Sequence record: PQ374922.1
Strand: one strand, 5' to 3'
Length of the DNA: 64,000 nucleotides
Origin: a phage
The notes beneath the pieces were generated by a model. The model was not told the DNA's origin. It did not search any database and saw only the letters and a program-made list of their open reading frames with translations. Of this stretch, positions 1 through 62,388 are shown one piece after another (the first letter of the stretch is position 1; each line of letters starts with the position of its first letter). The translations under genes were made by a program, and so were the position numbers.

Positions 1-10
1 AAAAAGAACA

Positions 11-1126
11 ATGGCGATTGCTAAAATTGGCGATCTGCATATCGGGAGCCGTAATGGTTCTCGATACGTTCGCGACTTCATCAAGAACTATCTCATCAAT
101 TATTTCATTCCTGAACTTGCCGACTCTGATATCAAAGAGGTCTGGCAGTTCGGTGATACGTTTGATGTCCGCAAATTCATGTACGGTCGTGACAAAGACT
201 GGCTGAAGGATGAACTCACCCCTGCGTTGAAAGCGGCTGGTATCAAGTGGAATGGCATCGTGGGCAACCATGATATCACCCTGGAAGAGTCCAACCGCAT
301 CAACTGGCCATCCTACCTGAACGAACTCGACCCGGATGTGTACTGCTATTACAGCGAACCGACCGAAGTGATGATCGAGGGTGTCAAGACTCTGCTGCTG
401 CCTTGGATCAACAAGGAGAACTATGATGCGTCTATTAAAGCGATACAAGATACAGACGCCGAGTACTGTTTTGCGCATCTGGAGCTGGCGGGGTTCAAAA
501 TGTATCAGTCTTCTACTTGTGATCACGGTCAGATCGACGTTGCTCTGCTTTCCAAGTTTACCAGAGTCGACACGGGTCATTTCCATACCCGTTCGATGGA
601 AGGTAACATTCAATATATTGGGACTCCATATCACCTGAACTGGGAAGACTACAAAGACGGTACCAACCGTGGCTTCTATGTGGACGACATGCGTGGTGGT
701 GAGATCTTTATCCCGAACGCCGAGCACCAGACGCTGTTCCGCTATGTGGAATATGATTACACCAAGTTGTCCTCTGATGAAGAAGGTAATTGGATCGACC
801 CGGAATGGTTGAACACAGGCTTGGGTATTGAAGGGCAAATTGTTAAGGTTATTGTACAGAACCGTGACAATGCTAAGCATTATGAAAAGTTCTATGATGC
901 CATGAAGCGCTGTAAGTGCATTGACTACAACTTCATCGACCGGACGATTACTGTTGCTGCCGAGAAGGTTGAGGTCACCGAAGAGATGGTGGCGACCGAT
1001 GCGGTGGAAGTCCTGAAGAAGGATATCCGCGCCGGGAACAACATTCAGCGCCCCGACAATGTCTGTAAACTGGCAGAGCACTTCTATAATGCTGCCCAAC
1101 AACGCCTGAACAAACTGGATGCATAA
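11..1126 (+). CDS. 47: Mre11/SbcD-like recombination nuclease subunit (T4 gp47 family)
   Basis: 371-aa ORF; calcineurin-like phosphoesterase motifs GDLHIG and GNHD; directly followed by Rad50-like ORF as in the T4 46/47 pair. Confidence 0.85.
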   Translation: MAIAKIGDLHIGSRNGSRYVRDFIKNYLINYFIPELADSDIKEVWQFGDTFDVRKFMYGRDKDWLKDELTPALKAAGIKWNGIVGNHDITLEESNRINWPSYLNELDPDVYCYYSEPTEVMIEGVKTLLLPWINKENYDASIKAIQDTDAEYCFAHLELAGFKMYQSSTCDHGQIDVALLSKFTRVDTGHFHTRSMEGNIQYIGTPYHLNWEDYKDGTNRGFYVDDMRGGEIFIPNAEHQTLFRYVEYDYTKLSSDEEGNWIDPEWLNTGLGIEGQIVKVIVQNRDNAKHYEKFYDAMKRCKCIDYNFIDRTITVAAEKVEVTEEMVATDAVEVLKKDIRAGNNIQRPDNVCKLAEHFYNAAQQRLNKLDA

Positions 1127-4222: not shown

Positions 4223-4318
4223 GGCTGAAGGGCACTAAATACCACGTGCCCTTTATCTTTTAACCCCTGTCAGGAGGCTCAATCGAGCTGCAAGTCGACA
4301 AACATAAGGAACGCCATC

Positions 4319-6040: not shown

Positions 6041-6089
6041 GTTTCGCTAATTAGAAGAAACCGCCGTTAATTCAGTCAGGAGATATAAA

Positions 6090-9428: not shown

Positions 9429-9460
9429 ATCCCCCTAAATACAGGGGGATTTCTTTTTCT
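9429..9460 (+). terminator. intrinsic terminator
   Basis: ATCCCCC-loop-GGGGGAT hairpin followed by TTCTTTTTCT. Confidence 0.65.
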
Positions 9461-9472
9461 GAGGACAACATC

Positions 9473-9883: not shown

Positions 9884-10495
9884 ATGAGCAAAATCTTTAT
9901 CCCGTCACACCGCGAAGGATGTGAAATCGCGGCCAACTACCTGCGCGGTCGCATGAACTGCGGCGCTGTCTTCATCGAGCCAAATTCGTTTGACAACAAA
10001 GAATCACCTGATGCCATCGGGTTCCGTTCCGGCGGTTGCTCTATCCTGATGGAAGTGAAGGTGTCTCGCTCTGATTTCCTTACCGACAAGAAGAAGCCCC
10101 ATCGGATGGACCCCACAACAGGTATGGGCGCATACCGCTTTTATGTCTGCCCTCAGGAAGTAATCAGGGTTGAAGACCTACCACCAAAGTGGGGGTTGTT
10201 CTACTTCACACCCCGCAAGTCCCTGATGCCAGTTCATGTGCCAGACATGCAGTACTCTTCATTGTCATCACCGGAGCATTATCAGAAGTACCTTGATGAA
10301 CAGATCAAGAGAGGAAGAACCGTTACCCGGCATATGCGCAGCTACATGGAACTCCTCGACGGCTTCGCCCACTTTGAGCGCAACATGGCTGGGGAACAGA
10401 ATATCCTGTATGGGGCTTGGCGTCAACTGTGTATAGCTCAAAGTCGTGGTGTAGACTATACTGTGACCGAAGTGTTCCAGAGGCCGAAGATCTAA
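9884..10495 (+). CDS. PD-(D/E)xK nuclease-fold protein (VRR-NUC-like motif)
   Basis: Motif SPDAIGF ... ILMEVKVSRSD matches PD...(D/E)xK core; SD AAGGA 7 nt upstream of ATG 9884. Confidence 0.5.
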   Translation: MSKIFIPSHREGCEIAANYLRGRMNCGAVFIEPNSFDNKESPDAIGFRSGGCSILMEVKVSRSDFLTDKKKPHRMDPTTGMGAYRFYVCPQEVIRVEDLPPKWGLFYFTPRKSLMPVHVPDMQYSSLSSPEHYQKYLDEQIKRGRTVTRHMRSYMELLDGFAHFERNMAGEQNILYGAWRQLCIAQSRGVDYTVTEVFQRPKI

Positions 10496-11151
10496 TGAAC
10501 TATCAAAAAATTCATGACGCTATAATAACCAGAGCCAGAGATAGAATTTTAACTGGTTACAAGGAAAAACACCACGTCATCCCTCTATCTCTTGGTGGTG
10601 AAGACAGGAACTACAATAAAGTTTCTCTCACAGCATCTGAACATTATATTATTCATCTTCTGTTGGCCAAAATTCACGGCGGGGTAATGGTCAGCGCATT
10701 TAAAAAGATGCGCCACTTGACCTCTAATCCTCCAAACAATAAAGAGTTTGCCGTCAGGAGGGAATTGTTGTGTACAACAGCCGGGGAGAAAGCGAAAGAT
10801 CCACAAAAACGGAAAAGGCATTCTCTGAAAATGAAGGGTAGAAACCATACAGAATCTGCCAAATTATCAATATCCAATTCCATGACTGGGGAGAATAACC
10901 CAATGAAGGGGATACCTGCATGGAGGAACCCGACCAACATCAGCCGAGGAACTCATAAAAATTGGTTGGCGGCTGGAGAAATTTATGACTTGTACGTCAC
11001 AGGGAAATTTTTAAGAGTTATCGACCTCTTCAATGCTTGCAAATTGCCGACATCATACGGAACGGTTTCCACCATAAAAACAAAATTGGAATTGGGTTGG
11101 GAGCCAAGGAAAGACGCGGATTGGTTGCAATTCTATGAGGAACACAAATGA
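10495..11151 (+). CDS. HNH homing endonuclease
   Basis: HNH motif HHVIPLSLGG...N...LTASEH; AT-rich relative to neighbours; inserted between nuclease ORF and primase with TAATG/ATGA overlaps. Confidence 0.7.
   Translation: MNYQKIHDAIITRARDRILTGYKEKHHVIPLSLGGEDRNYNKVSLTASEHYIIHLLLAKIHGGVMVSAFKKMRHLTSNPPNNKEFAVRRELLCTTAGEKAKDPQKRKRHSLKMKGRNHTESAKLSISNSMTGENNPMKGIPAWRNPTNISRGTHKNWLAAGEIYDLYVTGKFLRVIDLFNACKLPTSYGTVSTIKTKLELGWEPRKDADWLQFYEEHK
10495..11151 (+). mobile_element. free-standing homing endonuclease gene (HEG)
   Basis: Intergenic HNH ORF with lower GC than flanking replication genes. Confidence 0.5.
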
Positions 11152-13241: not shown

Positions 13242-13249
13242 TTTAAATA
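13242..13249 (+). promoter_or_regulatory. late-promoter-like motif TTTAAATA upstream of endolysin
   Basis: One mismatch to T4 late consensus TATAAATA; lies in 5-prime arm of RBS hairpin, 31 nt before ATG. Confidence 0.4.
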
Positions 13250-13275
13250 CCTCTGCATTCATTGTGGAGGTATTT
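13245..13275 (+). promoter_or_regulatory. RBS-sequestering hairpin at endolysin start
   Basis: 9-bp perfect inverted repeat AAATACCTC / GAGGTATTT (13245..13253, 13267..13275) with 13-nt loop; 3-prime arm contains the GGAGG Shine-Dalgarno. Confidence 0.55.
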
Positions 13276-13279
13276 TCTT

Positions 13280-14074
13280 ATGGCCATTCTAAAACTTGGC
13301 AACCGTGGCACTGAAGTGAAGGCACTTCAGGATAGCCTCAACAAAATCGGCTTCACCCTCGTCGCTGATGGTATCTTTGGCAAGGCAACAGAGAACGCCG
13401 TCAAGACTGTTCAGGCGGGTGCGGGGCTTGTCATTGATGGTATCGTGGGTCCAAAGACCTCCTATGCTATTCGCAACGCCGGAGACGCCCATCAGGATCA
13501 TCTAACTGAGTCAGACCTGATTGATGCTGCTAACGATCTGGGTGTTGACCTTGCCTCTGTCAAGGCGGTGAATCAGGTTGAGTCGCGCGGCACGGGCTTC
13601 ACCAAGTCAGGTAAGATCAAGACATTATTTGAGCGCCACATCATGTATAAGAAGCTGATGGCGAAGTTCGGACAGGCTCGGGCGAATGCCATGGGGCATA
13701 TGTACCCGACGTTGGTCAGTCCTTCCGCAGGCGGGTACACGGGAGGCGACGCGGAGTTGGATCGACTTCATGCGGCCATCAACATCGATGAGGATTGTGC
13801 GTACGAGAGCGCCTCTTACGGTCTCTTCCAGATCATGGGATTCAACTGCCAGGTCTGTGGATATGCCAACGCCAAGGAGATGTTCAACGACTTCCTGACA
13901 GGAGAACGTGCTCATTTGATGGCATTCGTGAAGTTCATCAAGGCTGACGCCAAGCTCTGGCAGGCTCTGAAGGACAAGAACTGGGCTGAGTTTGCGCGGC
14001 GCTATAATGGTCCGGCGTATGCCAAGAACCAGTACGACACGAAGCTCGTAGCAGCATACAAGAGTTTCAGTTAA
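13280..14074 (+). CDS. endolysin (peptidoglycan-binding domain plus muramidase-like catalytic domain)
   Basis: N-terminal PG_binding_1-like repeat (LQDSLNKIGF...DGIFGKATENAVKTVQ...DGIVGPKT); C-terminal domain resembling phage N-acetylmuramidase endolysins; ATG 13280 with GGAGG SD. Confidence 0.7.
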   Translation: MAILKLGNRGTEVKALQDSLNKIGFTLVADGIFGKATENAVKTVQAGAGLVIDGIVGPKTSYAIRNAGDAHQDHLTESDLIDAANDLGVDLASVKAVNQVESRGTGFTKSGKIKTLFERHIMYKKLMAKFGQARANAMGHMYPTLVSPSAGGYTGGDAELDRLHAAINIDEDCAYESASYGLFQIMGFNCQVCGYANAKEMFNDFLTGERAHLMAFVKFIKADAKLWQALKDKNWAEFARRYNGPAYAKNQYDTKLVAAYKSFS

Positions 14075-26937: not shown

Positions 26938-26964
26938 AGCCATCTTCGGATGGCTTTTTATTTT
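26938..26964 (+). terminator. intrinsic terminator after gp32 gene
   Basis: AGCCATC-TTCG-GATGGCT followed by TTTTTATTTT. Confidence 0.7.
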
Positions 26965-27902
26965 CCCATCACGTCTTGCAATATTCCCAACAGGCTTGTC
27001 TTCTCCGCCGCCGTCAGGTTATCGTTACCCATGATGTCACGAGAGATACCTACCGAGATGCGCTCGAAGTCCTGTATGCTTATCCCAGCCAGGTTGTTTA
27101 CAAGTTGGTCAAGCTGTTTGTAAGCCAGGAGAGCCTCTCCTGTGAAGTTCCCTTCTTTCAACTTGCGATAAAGCTGTCCAGCTTTTGAGGCCGCAGTTTC
27201 CCAGTCACCACTGGTAAGAGCGTCAGCAATGCCGAGAGGAAGAAAATCGCTGGAAAGGCTGCGTGTTTCATATTCTGTCTCCGAAAGCACTTTGTTGTAA
27301 GAGAAAGAAATGTTGTACTGGTTGAACTGGTCTGTGGCACCTTTATCTAGCTCAATAGAACTGAAATTTATTGGGTGAGCCTCGACGATGTAGACGCGGT
27401 GGACCACTTGATCTTCGGTGTCAAGCTGTTCAATGCATATGTCAGTCACGAAGTCTTCGTAATATCCCATTTTGGTGGTGTGTGGATCAAAGATCAGACT
27501 CTTCCACTTGTCCATCACAGACTTCTCATAATAGTCATTGGCTAATAAGAATGACAAGTCGAGGTCGACGTTGGACTTGTTGTTCGGCATCTTGATGTGA
27601 TTACCGTTGTTTGTCATTGGAGTGGTGTCGATACCAACCCCTGGCAATGAGGCAACCATACACATCATCTGAAGGGAACGGGACGTCTGGTTTGTCCCTC
27701 CAAAGAAAGCGTTTACAATACGGGCTGACTGCTTAAACAAGTCACCAAAAGATGAATTGGTTCTGTACGCCTTTCCGTCATTAGCCAGAGTGGCATTGGA
27801 GTCAAAGATCCCTGGTGGTAGAGGGATGGTCACTCTGAAGCGGTTCTTGCGCGACAAGCCCCGCTGTAATATCTGTGTGATAAAATTGCGATAGTCTTCC
27901 AC
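26958..27902 (-). CDS. virion structural protein (putative baseplate/tail-tube-associated)
   Basis: 314 aa; GTG start with GGAG SD; exact TATAAATA late-promoter motif 35 nt upstream; no catalytic motifs. Confidence 0.4.
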   Translation of the reverse strand: MEDYRNFITQILQRGLSRKNRFRVTIPLPPGIFDSNATLANDGKAYRTNSSFGDLFKQSARIVNAFFGGTNQTSRSLQMMCMVASLPGVGIDTTPMTNNGNHIKMPNNKSNVDLDLSFLLANDYYEKSVMDKWKSLIFDPHTTKMGYYEDFVTDICIEQLDTEDQVVHRVYIVEAHPINFSSIELDKGATDQFNQYNISFSYNKVLSETEYETRSLSSDFLPLGIADALTSGDWETAASKAGQLYRKLKEGNFTGEALLAYKQLDQLVNNLAGISIQDFERISVGISRDIMGNDNLTAAEKTSLLGILQDVMGK

Positions 27903-27936
27903 GGTGAGGACTCCACTTAAATAAAATAACTGTTAT

Positions 27937-27944
27937 TATTTATA
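27937..27944 (-). promoter_or_regulatory. T4-type late promoter TATAAATA
   Basis: Exact TATAAATA on minus strand, proximal end 35 nt from GTG start 27902. Confidence 0.55.
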
Positions 27945-27955
27945 GGAGTTGACAA

Positions 27956-28660
27956 ATGGCAAAGAATGCAGCTGGCGAAGAAGATCCGTTGCTGTTTCCG
28001 GCCGAGATGGACGCCCCCGAGCTGGTCAAGCGTTACATCCGCAAGTACCGTCAACACTTCGGTCCAGAGGCGAAGCGTAACATCCGCCGTTCGCATGTGT
28101 GGTTCATGGAGCGTGTGTCTAAGGACGCCAACCTGAGTCCCAACCATATGAAACAGGCGTTTGCTGATCACAAACGTCCGGTACAAGGTGTGCGGTATAT
28201 AGTCGGGCGTATGTTCTATTTCAAATATGATGCTCTGACGAAGAATGAACTACCCTACTGGGATATGTACCCTCTGGTGTTCTTCTTCAACTTTGTCAAG
28301 GGTGATGGCATCACCTTTGGAGAGAAGGGTGTGACATACCTCTGGGGGCTCAACATGCACTACCTGCCACCGAAGCTCAGGCTGTTGGTGTTTGAGGATC
28401 TGATCAAGTTGCGTAACGAACGGGCATACCGCTCAAAGACGCGTCTGAAGCTCACCTGGGAAGCCCTGAAGCGCTTCGCCAACCATCCGCTGTACAATCA
28501 CTGTGTGAAGCTGTACCGTGCCGATCAGTTCCGTTCACAGCTTTACGAGATTGAGCCACAGTACTGGGAGATCGTTCTCTTCATGCGCACTGCCCGCTTC
28601 CAGAAACAGAGCCAGATGTCTGTGTGGAAAGATGCACGTCGTATGCATAAGAAGAAATAG
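27956..28660 (+). CDS. hypothetical protein
   Basis: 234 aa basic protein; SD AGGAG upstream of ATG 27956. Confidence 0.5.
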   Translation: MAKNAAGEEDPLLFPAEMDAPELVKRYIRKYRQHFGPEAKRNIRRSHVWFMERVSKDANLSPNHMKQAFADHKRPVQGVRYIVGRMFYFKYDALTKNELPYWDMYPLVFFFNFVKGDGITFGEKGVTYLWGLNMHYLPPKLRLLVFEDLIKLRNERAYRSKTRLKLTWEALKRFANHPLYNHCVKLYRADQFRSQLYEIEPQYWEIVLFMRTARFQKQSQMSVWKDARRMHKKK

Positions 28661-35623: not shown

Positions 35624-36106
35624 ATGTTAACACAACAGTCTCTTAAAGAAATTCTGCATTACGACGAAGACACTGGGTGGTTTACATGGCTGACGGATCG
35701 TGGTGGTACTGCCAAAGCCGGAACAAGAGCTGGGTCTTTAAAACCTGACGGATACAGGGTTATAAGAATCGGCGAGAAGAAGCATTTAGAACACAGGTTG
35801 GCATTTCTCTATAAAACTGGTTCATGGCCAAAGAAATTGGTCGACCACAAAAATCGTATAAGAGACGACAACCGCTGGTTGAACCTTAGAGAATCTAATG
35901 AAAGCCAGAATGCCGTCAACACAGATTTGTATAGCCACAACACCACAGGCGCGAGGGGTGTATTTCGATACAAGAATAGATGGTGTGTGCAAATCAGAGT
36001 TAATGGGAAATATAGATCGTTTGGGTATTACGATGAATTCGAAGAAGCAAAGGAAATGGCGAACAAAGCCTACAAAGAATTGTTCGGAGAATTTTATCAA
36101 GGTTAG
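35624..36106 (+). CDS. HNH homing endonuclease with AP2-type DNA-binding domain
   Basis: HNH core DHKNRIRDDNRWLNLRE and C-terminal AP2-like GVFRYKNRWCVQIRVNGKYRSFGYYDEFEEA; AT-rich; inserted between uvsX region and gp41. Confidence 0.75.
   Translation: MLTQQSLKEILHYDEDTGWFTWLTDRGGTAKAGTRAGSLKPDGYRVIRIGEKKHLEHRLAFLYKTGSWPKKLVDHKNRIRDDNRWLNLRESNESQNAVNTDLYSHNTTGARGVFRYKNRWCVQIRVNGKYRSFGYYDEFEEAKEMANKAYKELFGEFYQG
35624..36106 (+). mobile_element. free-standing homing endonuclease gene (HEG)
   Basis: Intergenic HNH-AP2 ORF of lower GC between conserved replication genes. Confidence 0.5.
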
Positions 36107-38416: not shown

Positions 38417-39622
38417 ATGAGGCTGGAAATGAACGTCAAAACATTCAATATTCCGATCGACAATGAAGGGTTGGTAGTTGAGCGACTGAAGAAGCTCGAG
38501 CGCACTGCCGAAAGGTTGGGTGTTCCGTTTCCGACTGTGACTTATGGTGAACCCTTCAAAACCCACACCCGCGACTTCACTGGTGAGATCCTTACTCACT
38601 GGTGGAAACCTGTTACTCTCGAAGGCGAAGGCATTGACCGCCCCATCTCTTATGGTGGCTGGAAGATCATCGGTCAGTTCAATCACGAATATCCAAAGGT
38701 TATTCTTAACCGCCTGTCCGACAACATCAATCCCGACTTCATCCGTCGCTTCGAGGCAGAGAACGTCTCTTGGTGTCAGCATTGCAATCTAGCCATCCGT
38801 CGCAAGAACACATATGTGATTGAAAATGAGGAAACGCACACCCAGATGCTGATTGGTAGCACCTGTATGCATCATTATGTGCCTCATCAGAAGTCCCTTG
38901 ACGCGATTATGTCTTACTATCTGGAAATCCAAGAGTTCTTCATGCCAGACGAGGACGACCCAGAGGGTATATATCGCGTCCAAAATGAGCGCTTCACCGA
39001 CACCCACAGTTACCTGCGCGCATGCTTCCAGGTAATGCTGGCAGGCGTGGATATCAAGTCTGAACTGTTTGACAAAGTACTGGGCTATGTCCGGTCTCAC
39101 CAGAAACCAAAAGCAGGTTCCGATGAAGAGTATTTCGTAAACAAGGCACACGAATACCGTGAAGATGCCGAGTCGGAAATGTACCATATGAAGCTCTTCA
39201 TCAGTGCGCTGTCCGAATCCAATGAGTTCAATGTCCGCCTGAAACGCATGTGTGAACCCGGCTATCACCTCATCAAGGATAACAACACAGTCCGCTGGGG
39301 TGCCAAGAAGTATTACGATTACATCCATCGTCCTCGTACTGACCGCAAGGCGGAGAACAAATGGGTGGGCGAAGTCGGTGAAATGCTGGAAGTGCAAGTC
39401 AGGTTCGACAAGCGCACCTTCCTCTTCTCCAATGAATATGGTGATAGTTACCTGTTTACTTTCAAAACAGCAGAAGGCAATACAATTACATGGAAGACCT
39501 CTTATATGGATACAGAGTTCTTGCAGGGCGATATGATCATCCGTGGTCGTGTCAAAGAACTGACTGAGTACAACGGCGTTAAACAAACTCAGGTCACCAG
39601 AGCCAAATTGAGGAAATTATGA
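38417..39622 (+). CDS. hypothetical protein with CxxC...C/H cluster
   Basis: 401 aa from ATG 38417 (conserved leader AACTACATC); WCQHCN...STCMHH possible zinc site; function unknown. Confidence 0.5.
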   Translation: MRLEMNVKTFNIPIDNEGLVVERLKKLERTAERLGVPFPTVTYGEPFKTHTRDFTGEILTHWWKPVTLEGEGIDRPISYGGWKIIGQFNHEYPKVILNRLSDNINPDFIRRFEAENVSWCQHCNLAIRRKNTYVIENEETHTQMLIGSTCMHHYVPHQKSLDAIMSYYLEIQEFFMPDEDDPEGIYRVQNERFTDTHSYLRACFQVMLAGVDIKSELFDKVLGYVRSHQKPKAGSDEEYFVNKAHEYREDAESEMYHMKLFISALSESNEFNVRLKRMCEPGYHLIKDNNTVRWGAKKYYDYIHRPRTDRKAENKWVGEVGEMLEVQVRFDKRTFLFSNEYGDSYLFTFKTAEGNTITWKTSYMDTEFLQGDMIIRGRVKELTEYNGVKQTQVTRAKLRKL

Positions 39623-47331: not shown

Positions 47332-48300
47332 TTAGAAGCTATCGCCTTCGGTTTCAAAGCGCCCTTTGTGTAGAGGCTCCAGTTCGATGAAGGTCATGTC
47401 AACCTGCGTGGACACGATACCATCATCTTTGTGAACCGCGTATGAACTGTCCGGCGTCTCGTTGACGAACATGTTGGAAAGTACACAAGTGGAGATGCGG
47501 TGCAGCCACTGGTTACGCTCCCCATTGACCATGAACGTAATGTCGAATGTTGAAGGATGCAAGTAAAACGCGCTGGAATTCTTGTTGTACTTGTACTCTG
47601 GGTACATGTGCATCTTGAACATGCGGATGATCTCACGGACCATCTTGGCTTCCTTCTGAGATCGCGGCGTGAATTTGAATGTAAATGGAATCTCACGGTT
47701 GCGAACACCCTGGAAGATCATCTCCACATATGGGTTGGTCATGGTGCCTGTGAACAACTCAAGGGTGTCATGGGCGTTAATGCTCGGCAGGAATGGAATA
47801 GCCTCCGACGCAGATTGGATAGCCTTGGTGGCAGCGAATCGCCCCATCTCCTTCCCGACGTTGAGCGCATCACCCAGTTTAAACTGAGTCATGTCTTGGG
47901 CGGCGCGGGAAAGGAACTGTGCCCCCATACCAGCCAGCCCCAGCTCACTACCATTCCAGCCAACGCCATAGTTGGTTGTAATGGACTCGGGCATACAAAG
48001 TACGATAGACTCGTTTGAACGAACGTGACGCGCCCATGCATATTTGGTGATGGAACCAGACTTGGACCCATAGACCACAGGAGTATTCCCCAGAGGGTTC
48101 TGTATTGGGTTCTCGATAGTCTGAGTAGCCGTGTTGCCATAAGATGAACCGGAGATGCGGTTGATGTTGAATAGGACATAGTGTCCTAAGGTCTTACCCC
48201 CAGTGACGTCCAGGGGATAAGACAATTGCTTCTGAGCCTGGGACAATCCCTTCGTGTTCAGAACCTTGATCTTATCGATTGTCTTCTTGAAGTCGGCCAT
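47332..48300 (-). CDS. baseplate/tail-tube-associated structural protein (putative)
   Basis: 322 aa; first gene of minus-strand structural operon; late-promoter-like CCTAAATA 35 nt upstream. Confidence 0.4.
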   Translation of the reverse strand: MADFKKTIDKIKVLNTKGLSQAQKQLSYPLDVTGGKTLGHYVLFNINRISGSSYGNTATQTIENPIQNPLGNTPVVYGSKSGSITKYAWARHVRSNESIVLCMPESITTNYGVGWNGSELGLAGMGAQFLSRAAQDMTQFKLGDALNVGKEMGRFAATKAIQSASEAIPFLPSINAHDTLELFTGTMTNPYVEMIFQGVRNREIPFTFKFTPRSQKEAKMVREIIRMFKMHMYPEYKYNKNSSAFYLHPSTFDITFMVNGERNQWLHRISTCVLSNMFVNETPDSSYAVHKDDGIVSTQVDMTFIELEPLHKGRFETEGDSF

Positions 48301-48310
48301 GGTCTCAGCC

Positions 48311-48318
48311 CTTAAATA
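48311..48318 (+). promoter_or_regulatory. late-promoter-like motif CTTAAATA upstream of gp4-like gene
   Basis: Plus-strand TAAATA core 33 nt before ATG 48351; divergent with minus-strand motif. Confidence 0.35.
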
Positions 48319-48334
48319 GATAGAGTGTTATGGC

Positions 48335-48342
48335 TATTTAGG
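48335..48342 (-). promoter_or_regulatory. late-promoter-like motif CCTAAATA upstream of baseplate operon
   Basis: Proximal end 35 nt from ATG 48300, same spacing as the other two minus-strand late genes. Confidence 0.4.
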
Positions 48343-48350
48343 ACTAGATT

Positions 48351-48965
48351 ATGAGCAACTATCTTCAGGGGAAGTACACCCCAGTTAATCCCAAGAAATA
48401 TCAGGGGAATGTGAACAACATCATCTTCCGCTCTTCGCTGGAGTTGGTGGCTTTCAAGTTCTGTGATATGAACTCCGCGATAGTGAAGTGGTCTAGTGAG
48501 GAGACCGTAATCCCTTACATTTCCCCAGTAGACGGGCGCACCCATCGTTACTTCATGGACCTCAAGGTCTGGACGCGCCGTGAAGGGCAAGAGGAACTAC
48601 AGGTCACCCTCATTGAGATCAAGCCCAAAGACCAGATCAAGCAGCCGAAGAAGACTCCGAACATGAAGGAGTCGACATTCAACAATGCGATGCGAACCTG
48701 GTTGGTCAATTCTGCCAAGTGGCAGGCCACCCGCGAACTGTGTGCCAAGAAGAACTGGAAGTTCATTATATGGACCGAAGAGCATCTTGTTCCGGGTGAA
48801 GATCCGGATGTTCGTAAACAGTTTGAGCTGAAGTCGAAAAAGAAACGGGATATGGAGATGCAAGACCGTCGCCATGCTGAGCGTGTCAGATTCTTGAAAG
48901 AACAGATGATGAAGGAAGTAAGACCCGCCCCAACGGAGCGGGATGATGGACTGCTCTTACCTTAA
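48351..48965 (+). CDS. head completion protein, gp4-like (putative)
   Basis: Conserved-looking block IVKWSSEETVIPYISPVDGRTHRYFMDLKV recalled from T4-like head-completion proteins; late-promoter-like motif upstream. Confidence 0.45.
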   Translation: MSNYLQGKYTPVNPKKYQGNVNNIIFRSSLELVAFKFCDMNSAIVKWSSEETVIPYISPVDGRTHRYFMDLKVWTRREGQEELQVTLIEIKPKDQIKQPKKTPNMKESTFNNAMRTWLVNSAKWQATRELCAKKNWKFIIWTEEHLVPGEDPDVRKQFELKSKKKRDMEMQDRRHAERVRFLKEQMMKEVRPAPTERDDGLLLP

Positions 48966-60477: not shown

Positions 60478-61287
60478 TTAGACCGCAGCCATTTCGCAAC
60501 GAGTAGAGGTCACAGAGTGGCCGTCAGCGTCTTCAACAACACACCAGTACTCACCCTCGTTTTCGGCAGCAACTGCAGTGATAACCAGGCTCGCAGTTGC
60601 AGCAGTGGGGTTAGTGCCAGCATCGATCACCTCACCTTCACCACCAGGGACATCAGAGAAGTACCAAGTATGTGTGTATGGGGTAGTGCCGCCTGTAGCA
60701 GCGATGGTGAAGGTTGCGGATTCACCTGTTGTTACATCCTGAGAAGCGGCCAGATCGGTAGACAGAGACAGAGCGCCAGCCACTGTGATGACGGTAGAGT
60801 CAGTGTGGTCACCTTCGATGGTTACACCGTAAACAGTCACTGAACCCGGCGCCAGTAGCTTGAATTTACCACCACCGATGTGCACAGCTTTGGTCAGATC
60901 GCCAGAGTACCAGTTGACACCCTGGTAGGTCGCGTTCTCCGGAGCGACGACCGCCTTCAGTTCAACAACCTGACCGACTTCACCATTAGCAGTTTCAGGG
61001 GTGATGGTCAGGCCAGTGGTCAGTACAGCGCTTGGGTCGTGGATTTCATAAGACAGCTGGAAGCCAACGGGCTTGGTTGGATCCACTTTGGTGACGCCAT
61101 CGGCCTGCAAATTGCTCTTGGTCAGCAGTGCATCCAGACCTTTACACTCAGTCAGGATCTCGTCTGGGTCTTGGTTAAGACTGGTCTTTTCCCAACCCCG
61201 AGCAGTACCTGTTACAGTGTGAAGACGCTCAGTTTCCGGTTTGTTGCGAACAACTTCCGGTGCTACTAATACAGTGATCGTTGGCAT
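60478..61287 (-). CDS. Ig-like domain virion decoration protein (Hoc-like)
   Basis: ATG 61287 with GGAGGAA SD; Big_2-like segment (ATYQGVNWYSGD) and C-terminal I-set Ig-like domain (GEYWCVVEDADGHSVTSTRCE). Confidence 0.55.
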   Translation of the reverse strand: MPTITVLVAPEVVRNKPETERLHTVTGTARGWEKTSLNQDPDEILTECKGLDALLTKSNLQADGVTKVDPTKPVGFQLSYEIHDPSAVLTTGLTITPETANGEVGQVVELKAVVAPENATYQGVNWYSGDLTKAVHIGGGKFKLLAPGSVTVYGVTIEGDHTDSTVITVAGALSLSTDLAASQDVTTGESATFTIAATGGTTPYTHTWYFSDVPGGEGEVIDAGTNPTAATASLVITAVAAENEGEYWCVVEDADGHSVTSTRCEMAAV

Positions 61288-61658
61288 GGTTTCCTCCACT
61301 CATCCAAATCGTTGTTCAGAGCCATCATCAGCTCATTATCTGGTTCGTATGAACCGGAACATAAATCATCGCGCCATACGCCTAATGTCAACAAAGCAGC
61401 CTTGAGGCGTGGCAACTGGGTCTTATCCACCTTCAAAACGAGCATGCGGCAAGCAGCCTCTGTTTCGAACGTATTGAAGACAGTAATCAATTGATTGAGA
61501 ATCAACCGAGGACTCTTACCAGGGACAAATCTCTTCAATGATTGATTAATTAGCGAAATCCGCTGAATGTCTACCAGCAGTTCATCCCACGAGACAGAAT
61601 CTACAATATAATGCCTCAGTGCATAATCCATCAAGTTGCTTTCGTCAACGATAGGCAT
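61266..61658 (-). CDS. hypothetical protein
   Basis: 130 aa; overlaps Ig-like gene start by 22 nt. Confidence 0.45.
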   Translation of the reverse strand: MPIVDESNLMDYALRHYIVDSVSWDELLVDIQRISLINQSLKRFVPGKSPRLILNQLITVFNTFETEAACRMLVLKVDKTQLPRLKAALLTLGVWRDDLCSGSYEPDNELMMALNNDLDEWRKPCQRSLY

Positions 61659-61688: not shown

Positions 61689-62114
61689 TTATTTAATCTG
61701 CAATTTTTCGATCAGCTTCGCAATCAGCTGAATGCGATCTTCTTCTGTGATACCCAGCGGCGCAGCCAACAACTTGAGATCGTCAACCCCCAACAGGTTC
61801 AGAGTCTCGACTATGATGTTGGTTTCAATCACAGCCCCGGTTTCAAACGGCTTGCCGAACTTGTCGCGACCATAACGCTTGAGGGTCGCAGCCAGCCCTG
61901 GAAGCTCCTGGAGGAGTTCCTTCGTGCCGTCTTGGTATTCGCACACCCAACCGTACCCGCCAGCGTAGACGACGCCTCCGTCTCCCCCTGGAGGGATGTT
62001 ATCGATGGCGCGTTGTAGGTAGGTAGGCAACACACCTTCCTCCTTCGCCTGGATGTCATCGACTGGGGCTTCGGTTTTGATTTCAACTTTCTTGACTTCT
62101 GGTTTCTTGGCCAT
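61689..62114 (-). CDS. hypothetical protein
   Basis: 141 aa, Lys/Glu-rich N-terminus. Confidence 0.45.
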   Translation of the reverse strand: MAKKPEVKKVEIKTEAPVDDIQAKEEGVLPTYLQRAIDNIPPGGDGGVVYAGGYGWVCEYQDGTKELLQELPGLAATLKRYGRDKFGKPFETGAVIETNIIVETLNLLGVDDLKLLAAPLGITEEDRIQLIAKLIEKLQIK

Positions 62115-62388
62115 GTTCGGTTCTCCTATAGACTGTTACGTATTTACCACAGCAATTACAGCAGTACACGTGCATTGCGTAACCATCATCTGTGAAATCA
62201 CATCCACCACAGCGACAGAACAATTTCACGAACTGGTCACCATGCACTTCACGGGGTGGGAATTGTTTGTGTGAGTATTCCCTCATCTCCCCTTCAAACT
62301 GGAAGGAGTCTATCAAGAATTTGTCTGTCACACGATGCGAGCCATACGTCTGTCTTGCATATTTGAAGTAGACATCAGTGGTTAACAT
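62083..62388 (-). CDS. Cys-rich hypothetical protein
   Basis: 101 aa with CRCGGC ... CCNCCG clusters; overlaps downstream gene start by about 30 nt so true extent uncertain. Confidence 0.35.
   Translation of the reverse strand: MLTTDVYFKYARQTYGSHRVTDKFLIDSFQFEGEMREYSHKQFPPREVHGDQFVKLFCRCGGCDFTDDGYAMHVYCCNCCGKYVTVYRRTEHGQETRSQES

Follow-up and report, generated by a model that had tools for sequence, protein, structure and literature searches.

The 53-bp intergenic region between a gp54-like tail gene and a gp2-like DNA end protector gene raises the question of whether the octamer TATAAATA within it acts as a promoter and, if so, which gene it serves and at what stage of infection. The octamer occurs in a single exact copy, on the minus strand at 27944..27937, within the window, i.e. 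the whole 64,000-nt stretch of phage DNA that was analysed, which derives from an Ag3/ViI-like phage (Ackermannviridae) and shares 99.8% identity with Escherichia phage YX22. It lies upstream of a 314-aa gp54-like tail tube or baseplate tail-tube initiator gene (26958..27902, minus strand; named gp54 in Ag3), whose GTG start at 27902 is preceded by GGAG at 27914..27911 and is backed by a PHROG 3629 match covering the full length (residues 1–313 of 313, E 9e-177). Between the octamer and the GTG lie 34 nt, giving an offset of 35. Based on the sequence itself, its conservation and an earlier proposal for Ag3, TATAAATA at 27937..27944 is very probably a T4-type late promoter of this Ag3-like phage, serving the gp54-like gene.

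This promoter agrees with a published prediction for the phage group. In Shigella phage Ag3, Porf072 and Porf084 were listed as putative late promoters (Anany et al., 2011; PMC3121705, Table S2), Porf072 (tctttgccatttgtcaactcctataaata) being identical to positions 27965..27937 (minus strand) of the window and Porf084 corresponding to the gp5 site described below. The promoter reading at 27937 is therefore sound yet ordinary, the same site having been proposed for this close relative in 2011. That work searched for TATAAATA with one mismatch, obtained few sites and did not report the CTAAATA consensus; Porf072 was attributed to gp2, whereas the box faces the gp54-like gene, and one ACTAAATA site was listed within a sigma-70 promoter, Porf206 (PMC3121705). 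The present analysis corrects the published prediction on three points, namely the consensus, the gene served and the many missed sites. The 2012 paper by Adriaenssens on the genus 'Viunalikevirus' reportedly includes a CTAAATA-like late motif among conserved regulatory sequences. A literature search retrieved no published late-promoter consensus of use for Ackermannviridae, nor did it yield mapped 5' ends, expression timing or genetic data for phages of this family.

The original prediction had connected the flagged octamer with two further minus-strand sites at the same 35-nt offset, and motifs, start codons and offsets are exact at all three (27902, 21777 and 48300). The first of these sites, CATAAATA at 21812..21819, leaves a 34-nt gap to the ATG at 21777 of the gp5-like baseplate hub/tail lysozyme gene (20167..21777, minus strand), and its TAAATA is kept in all orthologous regions, while the flanks diverge. 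The second, CCTAAATA at 48335..48342, leaves the same gap to the ATG at 48300 of the gp48-like tail tube cap gene (47332..48300, minus strand; PHROG 230), which opens a baseplate operon continuing with a gp53-like gene and others; the orthologous site in phage CBA120 retains CCTAAATA. Related motifs claimed before the endolysin, RuvC-like and gp4-like genes at 31 to 39 nt are likewise real, with offsets of 31, 39 and 33, and are all on the plus strand: TTTAAATA at 13242..13249, placed inside a hairpin 5' arm, before the endolysin gene (13280..14074); CATAAATA at 24145..24152 before the RuvC-like resolvase gene (24191..24781); and CTTAAATA at 48311..48318, the divergent partner of the baseplate promoter, before the gp4-like head-closure gene (48351..48965; PHROG 218). 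Each is a predicted late promoter of the gene that follows; the genes served in the window comprise gp54-like, gp2, gp5, gp48-like, gp4-like, endolysin and RuvC-like. The restriction to minus-strand structural genes had to be dropped, since gp2, gp4-like, endolysin and RuvC-like genes on the plus strand also carry the motif.

Three minus-strand sites extend this series. A TAATTA variant box at 23125..23130 lies 28 nt before a baseplate hub gene (22290..23096), at a position where most relatives carry TAAATA. The core of ATTAAATA at 61690..61695, conserved in CBA120, lies 31 nt before a 130-aa gene (61266..61658) situated upstream of a Hoc-like Ig-domain structural gene. The core of GGTAAATA at 62141..62146, 26 nt before a 141-aa gene (61689..62114), is a weaker candidate, as a G before TAAATA is otherwise avoided. 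Neither of two endonuclease genes has a late box upstream: the HNH gene at 35624 is preceded by TATAAT, and the homing endonuclease gene at 10495 by neither the late box nor TATAAT.

Occurrence alone says little about function. Shuffled sequences are expected to contain 0.6 copies of the exact octamer and hold at least one in 44% of cases, so that its single copy is allowed by chance; the 18 copies of TAAATA in the window, against 14.8 expected, likewise represent no over-representation. Both the octamer statistics and the raw TAAATA counts are uninformative by themselves, and oriented placement is the discriminating test. Eleven of the 18 TAAATA copies are correctly oriented 22–45 nt upstream of a mapped gene start, a zone covering 1.65% of the strand-positions of the window (binomial p 7e-16), and TAAATA ranks first among all hexamers for such placement; the positional enrichment proposed as a check on the motif is thereby confirmed. 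Nor does the motif occur equally often inside coding regions: non-coding DNA makes up 8.8% of the window and holds 11 of the 18 copies. The same pattern holds for whole genomes: in YX22, 26 upstream windows contain 26 of 58 TAAATA copies, against 1.7 expected (p 7e-22), and 13 of 18 CTAAATA copies, while in CBA120, a distant relative from a different subfamily, the upstream windows contain 30 of 74 (p 7e-23) and 17 of 25, respectively. TAAATA is the top upstream hexamer genome-wide in both phages, and it is conserved between Ackermannviridae subfamilies in orthologous intergenic regions, where the neighbouring bases vary. In CBA120, the motif precedes 15 of 35 late-annotated genes (virion, lysis) vs 15 of 166 others (Fisher p 6e-6), or 19 of 35 vs 20 of 166 when variant boxes are counted. 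Non-random placement, conservation and association with late genes are thus directly supported. There are also TAAATA copies ahead of genes with no evident late expression, among them a regulator-like gene and a DNA polymerase gene.

These sites define a family motif that differs from TATAAATA. The consensus reads (A/C)CTAA(A/T/G)TA, with CTAATTA and CTAAGTA as variants of (A/C)CTAAATA; some four C-rich bases come next and lead into an A-rich start region. A predominates at the sixth position past the box, in agreement with T4 late starts. C content in the four bases after the box is 38–62%, vs 9–28% in T4, and the AT-rich segment expected of a T4-type promoter is lacking; the flagged box departs from the family pattern in being followed by AT-rich bases (ATAAC). 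The supposedly fixed 35-nt spacing is shared by the three cited sites, but the gaps between box and start codon across the YX22 and CBA120 genomes span 23–42 nt (median about 32).

The factors that would read such a box are encoded by the phage. A search for them identified a gp33 homologue, a late-transcription coactivator, at 25317..25562 (plus strand), matching Pfam PF16805 with 64 bits (cut-off 25) and PHROG 254, a family also matched by T4 gp33; BLASTP against T4 gp33 gave E 2e-7. The last 7 codons and stop of a gp55 homologue, the late sigma factor, occupy 1..24 (plus strand), the remainder lying beyond the left edge of the window. This protein belongs to PHROG 234 (E 3e-52), as does T4 gp55, and also matches cyanophage genes annotated as gp55; it had no Pfam match, and pairwise BLASTP against T4 gp55 detected no similarity (E 96), so that the link with T4 runs via the family profile. 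Searches of the gp55 and gp33 sequences against solved structures returned no match. A gp45 is annotated in YX22 and CBA120, with a Pfam match below the cut-off. By analogy with T4, host core RNA polymerase would carry the phage gp55-family sigma factor late in infection and, with help from gp33 as coactivator and gp45 as sliding clamp, would recognise a lone -10-positioned box without a -35 element. Under the T4 rule, transcription would start about 6 nt past the box, at about 27931 for the flagged site, giving the gp54-like gene a leader of about 29 nt. We infer the start site, late timing and gp55 dependence of these promoters from this analogy, whereas the presence of the factor genes is directly observed. 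The T4-type reading put forward originally, with a gp55-type sigma factor and short leaders, is supported by placement, conservation, the lack of a -35 partner, the association with virion and lysis genes and the factor genes; the uniform spacing put forward with it is not, the gap from box to start codon varying over 23–42 nt.

The flagged box does not stand alone in its intergenic region. On the plus strand, a gp2-like DNA end protector gene (27956..28660; PHROG 429, E 1.6e-67) has its own predicted late promoter, CTTAAATA at 27916..27923, which lies 32 nt before the ATG at 27956 and has a predicted start at about 27929. The two boxes form an interdigitated divergent pair, each lying downstream of the other's predicted start, and polymerase occupancy of the gp54-like and gp2 promoters should therefore be mutually exclusive. 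Over 20 related loci both TAAATA boxes are kept, the minus-strand motif in 19 and the plus-strand one in all, while the 13-nt spacer between them is variable.

Many of the boxes are associated with RNA hairpins, the box lying within a stable hairpin at about 40% of sites. A hairpin sequestering the Shine-Dalgarno sequence was found at 21 of 55 TAAATA sites (about 38%) vs 6 of 146 controls in two genomes, or, genome by genome, in 12 of 26 and 9 of 29 motif leaders vs 3 of 70 and 3 of 76 controls. Arms from the same site pair better than arms taken across sites, a value reached in 0 of 20,000 permutations in either genome. At the endolysin gene, a 5' arm at 13245..13257 pairs with a 3' arm at 13263..13275 that holds the GGAGG Shine-Dalgarno sequence; the read-through RNA folds with a z-score of -3.0, vs 0.1 for RNA from the predicted late start. 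At the RuvC-like gene, the arms are 24147..24159 and 24177..24189, the 3' arm adjoining the start codon, with z-scores of -3.6 for the read-through fold and 0.6 for the truncated RNA. Orthologues, with few distinct sequences for either leader, give thin evidence that pairing is maintained: in the endolysin leader through C-G/U-G/G-U exchanges, which are wobble-compatible, and in the RuvC leader through one compensated G:C pair insertion and one A-U to U-A double change, the RNAalifold alignment understating the pairing because it misplaces the compensated indel. A rival to the promoter reading would have the conserved TAAATA(CCCC) act in RNA, as one arm of a hairpin, as part of a terminator or as a site of processing. 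In its favour are the stable hairpins that include the box at about 40% of sites, the U-rich bases after some hairpins and the TAAATA copies at 4236 and 9436, which are located in loops of terminator-like hairpins. That the motif works as RNA instead of as a promoter is nevertheless very improbable: the boxes in divergent regions are conserved though they have neither upstream same-strand transcription nor significant structure, the gp5 box has no hairpin, the terminator scan skips the promoter-linked hairpins, and the motif matches the T4/Aeh1 late box in a phage that possesses the sigma and coactivator genes.

Two other explanations of the hairpins were considered and rejected. As intrinsic terminators, the promoter-linked hairpins are called in no case by the terminator scan, their loops often measure 13–20 nt and other bases break up their U-tracts; the endolysin hairpin may still contribute to termination in a minor way. 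As DNA-level palindromes or antisense promoters, they are disfavoured by 3' arms that rarely show TAAATA on the opposite strand and by G-U pairs in several stems. The difference in folding energy between sense and antisense strands is, however, small.

Promoter and hairpin may instead be parts of one device. In the proposed arrangement, which applies to many same-strand late genes, the endolysin and RuvC-like ones among them, the last bases of the box and the C-rich bases after it would form the 5' arm, and the gene's own Shine-Dalgarno region the 3' arm; RNA reading through from upstream would have its ribosome site sequestered, while RNA begun at the late promoter would be without the 5' arm and hence translatable. 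In computed folds, the Shine-Dalgarno sequence is freed sharply as the 5' end is shifted from -2 to +6 after the box. Judgement is evenly balanced on whether the Ackermannviridae late promoter and an anti-Shine-Dalgarno element are fused into a single module, CTAAATA-CCCC, at roughly 30–45% of late genes, licensing translation only of transcripts started at the late promoter. If this were true, it would account for the unusual richness in C just past the box, would turn the arrangement known from T4 e, soc, 49 and I-TevI into a genome-wide design rule, and would represent a compact way of preventing translation of virion and lysis genes from early read-through RNA, usable for timing gene expression in engineered phages. 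The hairpin idea is inapplicable to the flagged site at 27937, where no significant RNA structure was found (z about -1).

Alternatively, the box could be the -10 element of a standard sigma-70 promoter, from which the host RNA polymerase, still unmodified, would transcribe early in infection. TATAAA is indeed similar to TATAAT, and a consensus scan places TTGCCA-16 nt-AATAAT across the box at 27962..27935 on the minus strand, with 10 of 12 positions matching. Hits this good are frequent, however (27 vs about 20 expected in shuffles), and the -35 part belongs to the coding sequence of gp2; Kuttervirus relatives have TTAGCC there and yet retain TATAAATA. Across 56 pooled sites no -35 element is present, none of the 45 positions before the box carrying more than 0.2 bit of information; TATAAT is enriched separately, as a different set of sites, and the genes served by the box are virion and lysis genes. 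A sigma-70 promoter is accordingly highly improbable here. Chance matches in AT-rich intergenic DNA, with which the lone TATAAATA and the unraised TAAATA totals would agree, are effectively refuted by the placement and conservation tests: no hexamer ranked above TAAATA in any of three separate tests of oriented placement, and it is conserved between subfamilies.

With the late-promoter reading retained, late transcription units of Ackermannviridae, phages widely used in biocontrol, can be mapped at little cost from a list of CTAA(A/T/G)TA boxes, which also exposes misannotated starts, such as that of the truncated gp54-like gene in YX22.

The promoters described here resemble T4 late promoters in being lone -10-positioned A/T boxes without a -35 element, located before virion and lysis genes whose leaders are short, and in the purine-rich base six positions after the box. 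T4 late promoters depend on the gp55 sigma factor, the gp33 coactivator and the gp45 sliding clamp, and the gp55 and gp33 homologues share their PHROG families with the T4 proteins, although the gp55 homologue has 263 aa here vs 185 aa in T4. The T4 late box, TATAAATA, occupies -13..-6, and that of Aeromonas phage Aeh1 is CTAAATA from -12 (Nolan et al., 2006; PMC1524935). Position -12 is A in T4 and C here, where -13 is free; the segment between box and start is AT-rich in T4 (PMC2988020) and C-rich in this phage group, and leaders from box to start codon measure 13–34 nt in T4 and 23–42 nt here. Aeh1 shares the CTAAATA core and the strong C at -12, together with a gp55 diverged from that of T4, both consensuses being predicted; it belongs to Straboviridae, a family other than that of this phage. 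The face-to-face arrangement of boxes in the gp54-like/gp2 region has the same layout as that of T4 genes 4/53, and T4 genes 26/51 also have a face-to-face divergent pair.

As for the hairpins, in T4 e, soc, 49 and I-TevI, as well as Aeh1 mobE, a leader hairpin blocks access to the ribosome site and contains the late promoter within its 5' arm (Uzan and Miller, 2010; PMC3014915). Hairpins of the T4 e/49 type occur at about 38% of TAAATA sites here (21 of 55, two genomes) vs 2 of 21 in T4 (Fisher p 0.02), a soft contrast, as the measure overlooks T4 soc and picks up T4 e only weakly, with a Shine-Dalgarno unpaired probability of 0.30. In this phage, the endolysin and RuvC-like genes are functional analogues of T4 e and 49, respectively, and in both phages the late box of these genes lies in the 5' arm of the hairpin.

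The 12 kb around the box TATAAATA at 27944..27937 (-) shared 99.8% identity with Escherichia phage YX22 and 92.7% with Shigella phage Ag3, both members of the Ackermannviridae, subfamily Aglimvirinae, and the entire window was aligned, in reversed orientation, with YX22 2791..66631. Gene identities were confirmed against PHROGs. The box precedes the gene encoding a gp54-like tail tube protein (26958..27902, -), whose 314-aa product with a GTG start at 27902 is backed by RPN242, CBA120 and a full-length PHROG match; the GenBank annotation of this gene in YX22 (38496..39206) is too short, yielding 236 aa from a start equivalent to window position 27668. The site is a known kind of element, already predicted at the same place in the close relative Ag3, where homologues of gp55, gp33 and gp45 were noted and TATAAATA was searched for with one mismatch (PMC3121705). 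Two entries of Table S2 in that study, 'Porf072 tctttgccatttgtcaactcctataaata' and 'Porf084 ...gcgcataaata', correspond to the present site and to the gp5 site, respectively (PMC3121705). The Porf072 box was given there to gp2 (PMC3121705), whereas the box faces the gp54-like gene (orf073), and gp2 has its own box, CTTAAATA, on the opposite strand. Among other relatives, 33 late promoters were proposed in LIMEstone by similarity to T4 (PMC3296691), and the CBA120 report described the sequence recognised in late transcription of ViI-like phages as not yet identified (PMC3184105). No transcript mapping for any Ackermannviridae member was found in the literature searched.

Re-checking the sequence showed all originally predicted coordinates to be correct. 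TATAAATA lies 34 nt ahead of the GTG, which is itself preceded by GGAG at 8 nt, and the same 34-nt gap to an ATG follows CATAAATA (21819..21812, -), ahead of the gp5-like hub/tail lysozyme gene (20167..21777, -), and CCTAAATA (48342..48335, -), ahead of the gp48-like tail tube cap gene (47332..48300, -). TAAATA also occurs 30, 38 and 32 nt upstream of the endolysin (13280..14074, +; annotated as N-acetylmuramidase in RPN242 and endolysin in CBA120), RuvC-like resolvase (24191..24781, +) and gp4-like head closure (48351..48965, +) genes, respectively. The TATAAATA octamer is present as a single copy in the window, which taken alone is not above chance, and the overall TAAATA count in the window shows no over-representation. 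The placement of TAAATA relative to the 89 mapped gene starts departs from chance to an extreme degree: 11 of 18 copies are correctly oriented 22-45 nt 5' of a start (p 7e-16), a zone covering 1.65% of strand-positions, and TAAATA was the top-ranked hexamer for such placement. The refuting condition originally set, an equal frequency of the motif within coding regions, did not hold.

The positional enrichment was also found genome-wide. When the -60..-11 windows of the 186 annotated genes in the assembled YX22 genome were scored, TAAATA was the most enriched hexamer, with 26 of 58 genomic copies in the windows of 26 genes against 1.7 expected (p 7e-22), and the best 7-mers were CTAAATA (13/18 genomic copies) and TAAATAC. 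CBA120, from another subfamily (Cvivirinae), repeated the result (TAAATA 30/74, p 7e-23; CTAAATA 17/25), with the motif enriched ahead of virion and lysis genes (15/35 vs 15/166, p 6e-6). The aligned sites gave (A/C)CTAAATA, instead of the consensus first proposed, followed by about four C-rich bases and an A-rich stretch peaking at the sixth base past the box; G almost never stands directly ahead of TAAATA, and no -35-like signal exceeded 0.2 bit at any position over the 45 nt upstream. At its fifth base the box seems unconstrained (A, T or G), and it is better written CTAA(A/T/G)TA, since CTAATTA and CTAAGTA stand ahead of the genes for major capsid, portal and tail tube in both YX22 and CBA120. 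These variants show enrichment 5' of gene starts and occur in the window at 6048, 9051 and 14136 (+). Box and start codon are 23 to 42 nt apart in YX22 and CBA120 (median about 32), compared with 13-34 nt for exact boxes in T4, and the three 34-nt gaps fall in the upper-middle of this range. The observation is confirmed, and the late-promoter interpretation was right in substance; the 35-nt offset, identical at the three sites cited, does not hold as a fixed rule, the consensus required correction, and the restriction to minus-strand genes fails, the motif also preceding the plus-strand gp2, gp4-like, endolysin and RuvC-like genes.

Host-type signals were also detected. In the window, TATAAT ranked second among hexamers for enrichment 22-45 nt ahead of starts (11/33 copies, p 3e-12), and it did so genome-wide in YX22 and CBA120 as well. 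These sites are likely early promoters of the host type, far outnumbering the eight reported for Ag3 and CBA120. A perfect sigma-70 consensus (TTGACA-16 nt-TATAAT, 12/12) at 23282..23309 (-), inside the plus-strand gene 23146..23670 and roughly 186 nt ahead of the baseplate hub start (23096), might drive early or antisense transcription. The hub gene itself has TAATTA at 23125..23130 (-), within cgTTATAATTAc and also readable as a perfect TATAAT, where most relatives have TAAATA, suggesting either a tolerated variant or a promoter class switched in this lineage. An HNH endonuclease gene (35624..36106, +) missing from YX22 and a homing endonuclease gene (10495..11151, +) adjoining the primase gene, present in YX22 and missing from RPN242, both have no upstream late box; TATAAT precedes the former only. 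Terminator-like hairpins with T-runs carry TAAATAC in their loops at 4227..4262 and 9429..9465 (+) (gggcacTAAATAccacgtgccc and atcccccTAAATAcaggggga), the second kept in CBA120, and may be promoters, coincidences or something else. Between the hub and gp5 genes, the symmetric GC-rich hairpin AATCCCGCCGAAGCGGGATT (22123..22142), with T-runs on both strands, received a terminator call on both.

The late-transcription factors searched for were found: a gp33 homologue within the window (25317..25562; Pfam PF16805, 64 bits; PHROG 254; BLASTP E 2e-7 against T4 gp33) and a gp55 homologue directly to its left, whose last seven codons occupy window 1..24 (YX22 66608..67399; 263 aa vs 185 aa in T4). The latter matches PHROG 234 (E 3e-52), which T4 gp55 also matches (E 3e-69), and it hits cyanophage genes annotated gp55; pairwise BLASTP against T4 gp55 gave no similarity. 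The family profile covers its residues 13-208, and a charged extension of about 55 aa remains at the C-terminus; because the clamp-binding epitope of T4 gp55 is its extreme C-terminus, clamp contact may be organised differently here. The annotations of YX22 and CBA120 also include a gp45 homologue.

The 53-bp gp54/gp2 intergenic region contains two face-to-face boxes, TATAAATA, predicted to serve the gp54-like gene, and CTTAAATA (27916..27923, +), predicted to serve the gp2-like DNA end protector gene (27956..28660, +). Across 20 related viral contigs, TATAAATA was kept in all but the LIMEstone-like one, which carries TATAAGTA, one of the CTAA(A/T/G)TA-type variants, TAAATA was kept on the other strand in 20/20, and the 13 nt between the boxes varied freely. 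The gp5 box was likewise retained in Kuttervirus despite rewritten flanks, and no box preceded the early genes ssb and gp33. Counted from the transcription start, the T4 late box spans -13..-6 (PMC1524935), and by this rule starts are predicted at about 27929 (+) and 27931 (-); each box would lie just downstream of the opposite promoter's start, so that the open complexes of the two would overlap. The same construction is seen in the gp48-like/gp4-like region (48311..48342). RNA folding of the gp54/gp2 region was no better than that of shuffled sequence (z about -1). In T4, genes 4/53 and 26/51 (L064 27330..27392; L065 16420..16486) have face-to-face TATAAATA boxes in the same interdigitated layout, with intergenic regions of about 50 bp, so the divergent arrangement is inherited rather than new.

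At many sites, the Shine-Dalgarno region of a gene is complementary to the final bases of its own box together with the C-rich bases that follow. Own-site arms pair more strongly than swapped arms (-7.5 vs -4.7 kcal/mol in YX22), and 0 of 20,000 arm-swap permutations reached the observed pairing in YX22, and likewise in CBA120. With sequestration defined as a Shine-Dalgarno region less than 20% unpaired in RNA including the box, 12/26 motif-bearing leaders in YX22 and 9/29 in CBA120 were sequestered, against 3/70 and 3/76 controls (the remaining genes whose intergenic gap is 40 nt or more). Accessibility was unaffected by shortening the RNA from 26 nt 5' of the box as far as the box's last bases, rose sharply with 5' ends from -2 to +6 past the box and then reached a plateau at control level; the start predicted by the T4 rule coincides exactly with the point at which the ribosome site becomes free. 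Clear cases within the window are the endolysin (arms 13245..13257 and 13263..13275, +) and RuvC-like (24147..24159 and 24177..24189, +) leaders, with z of -3.0 and -3.6, respectively, in read-through RNA entering from upstream, and near 0 in RNA truncated at the predicted late start. Among orthologues, representing few distinct sequences, the pairing appears to be retained through wobble-compatible changes, a single double substitution of A-U by U-A and a single compensated insertion of a G:C pair. Of the whole finding, only this link between promoter and anti-Shine-Dalgarno arm might merit experimental work.

The proposed mechanism, a leader hairpin with an embedded late promoter, is documented for Aeh1 mobE and for four T4 genes, e, soc, 49 and I-TevI (PMC3014915), and the endolysin and resolvase of the window correspond in function to T4 e and 49. 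By the same measure, 2/21 sites were sequestered in T4 vs 21/55 in YX22 and CBA120 together (Fisher p 0.02), a more systematic use that is a lead rather than a result, because soc escapes the measure and T4 e registers only weakly (0.30 unpaired, above the cut-off of 0.2). The segment after the box is AT-rich in T4 (PMC2988020) and C-rich here, a difference that pairing of the box arm with the Shine-Dalgarno region would explain.
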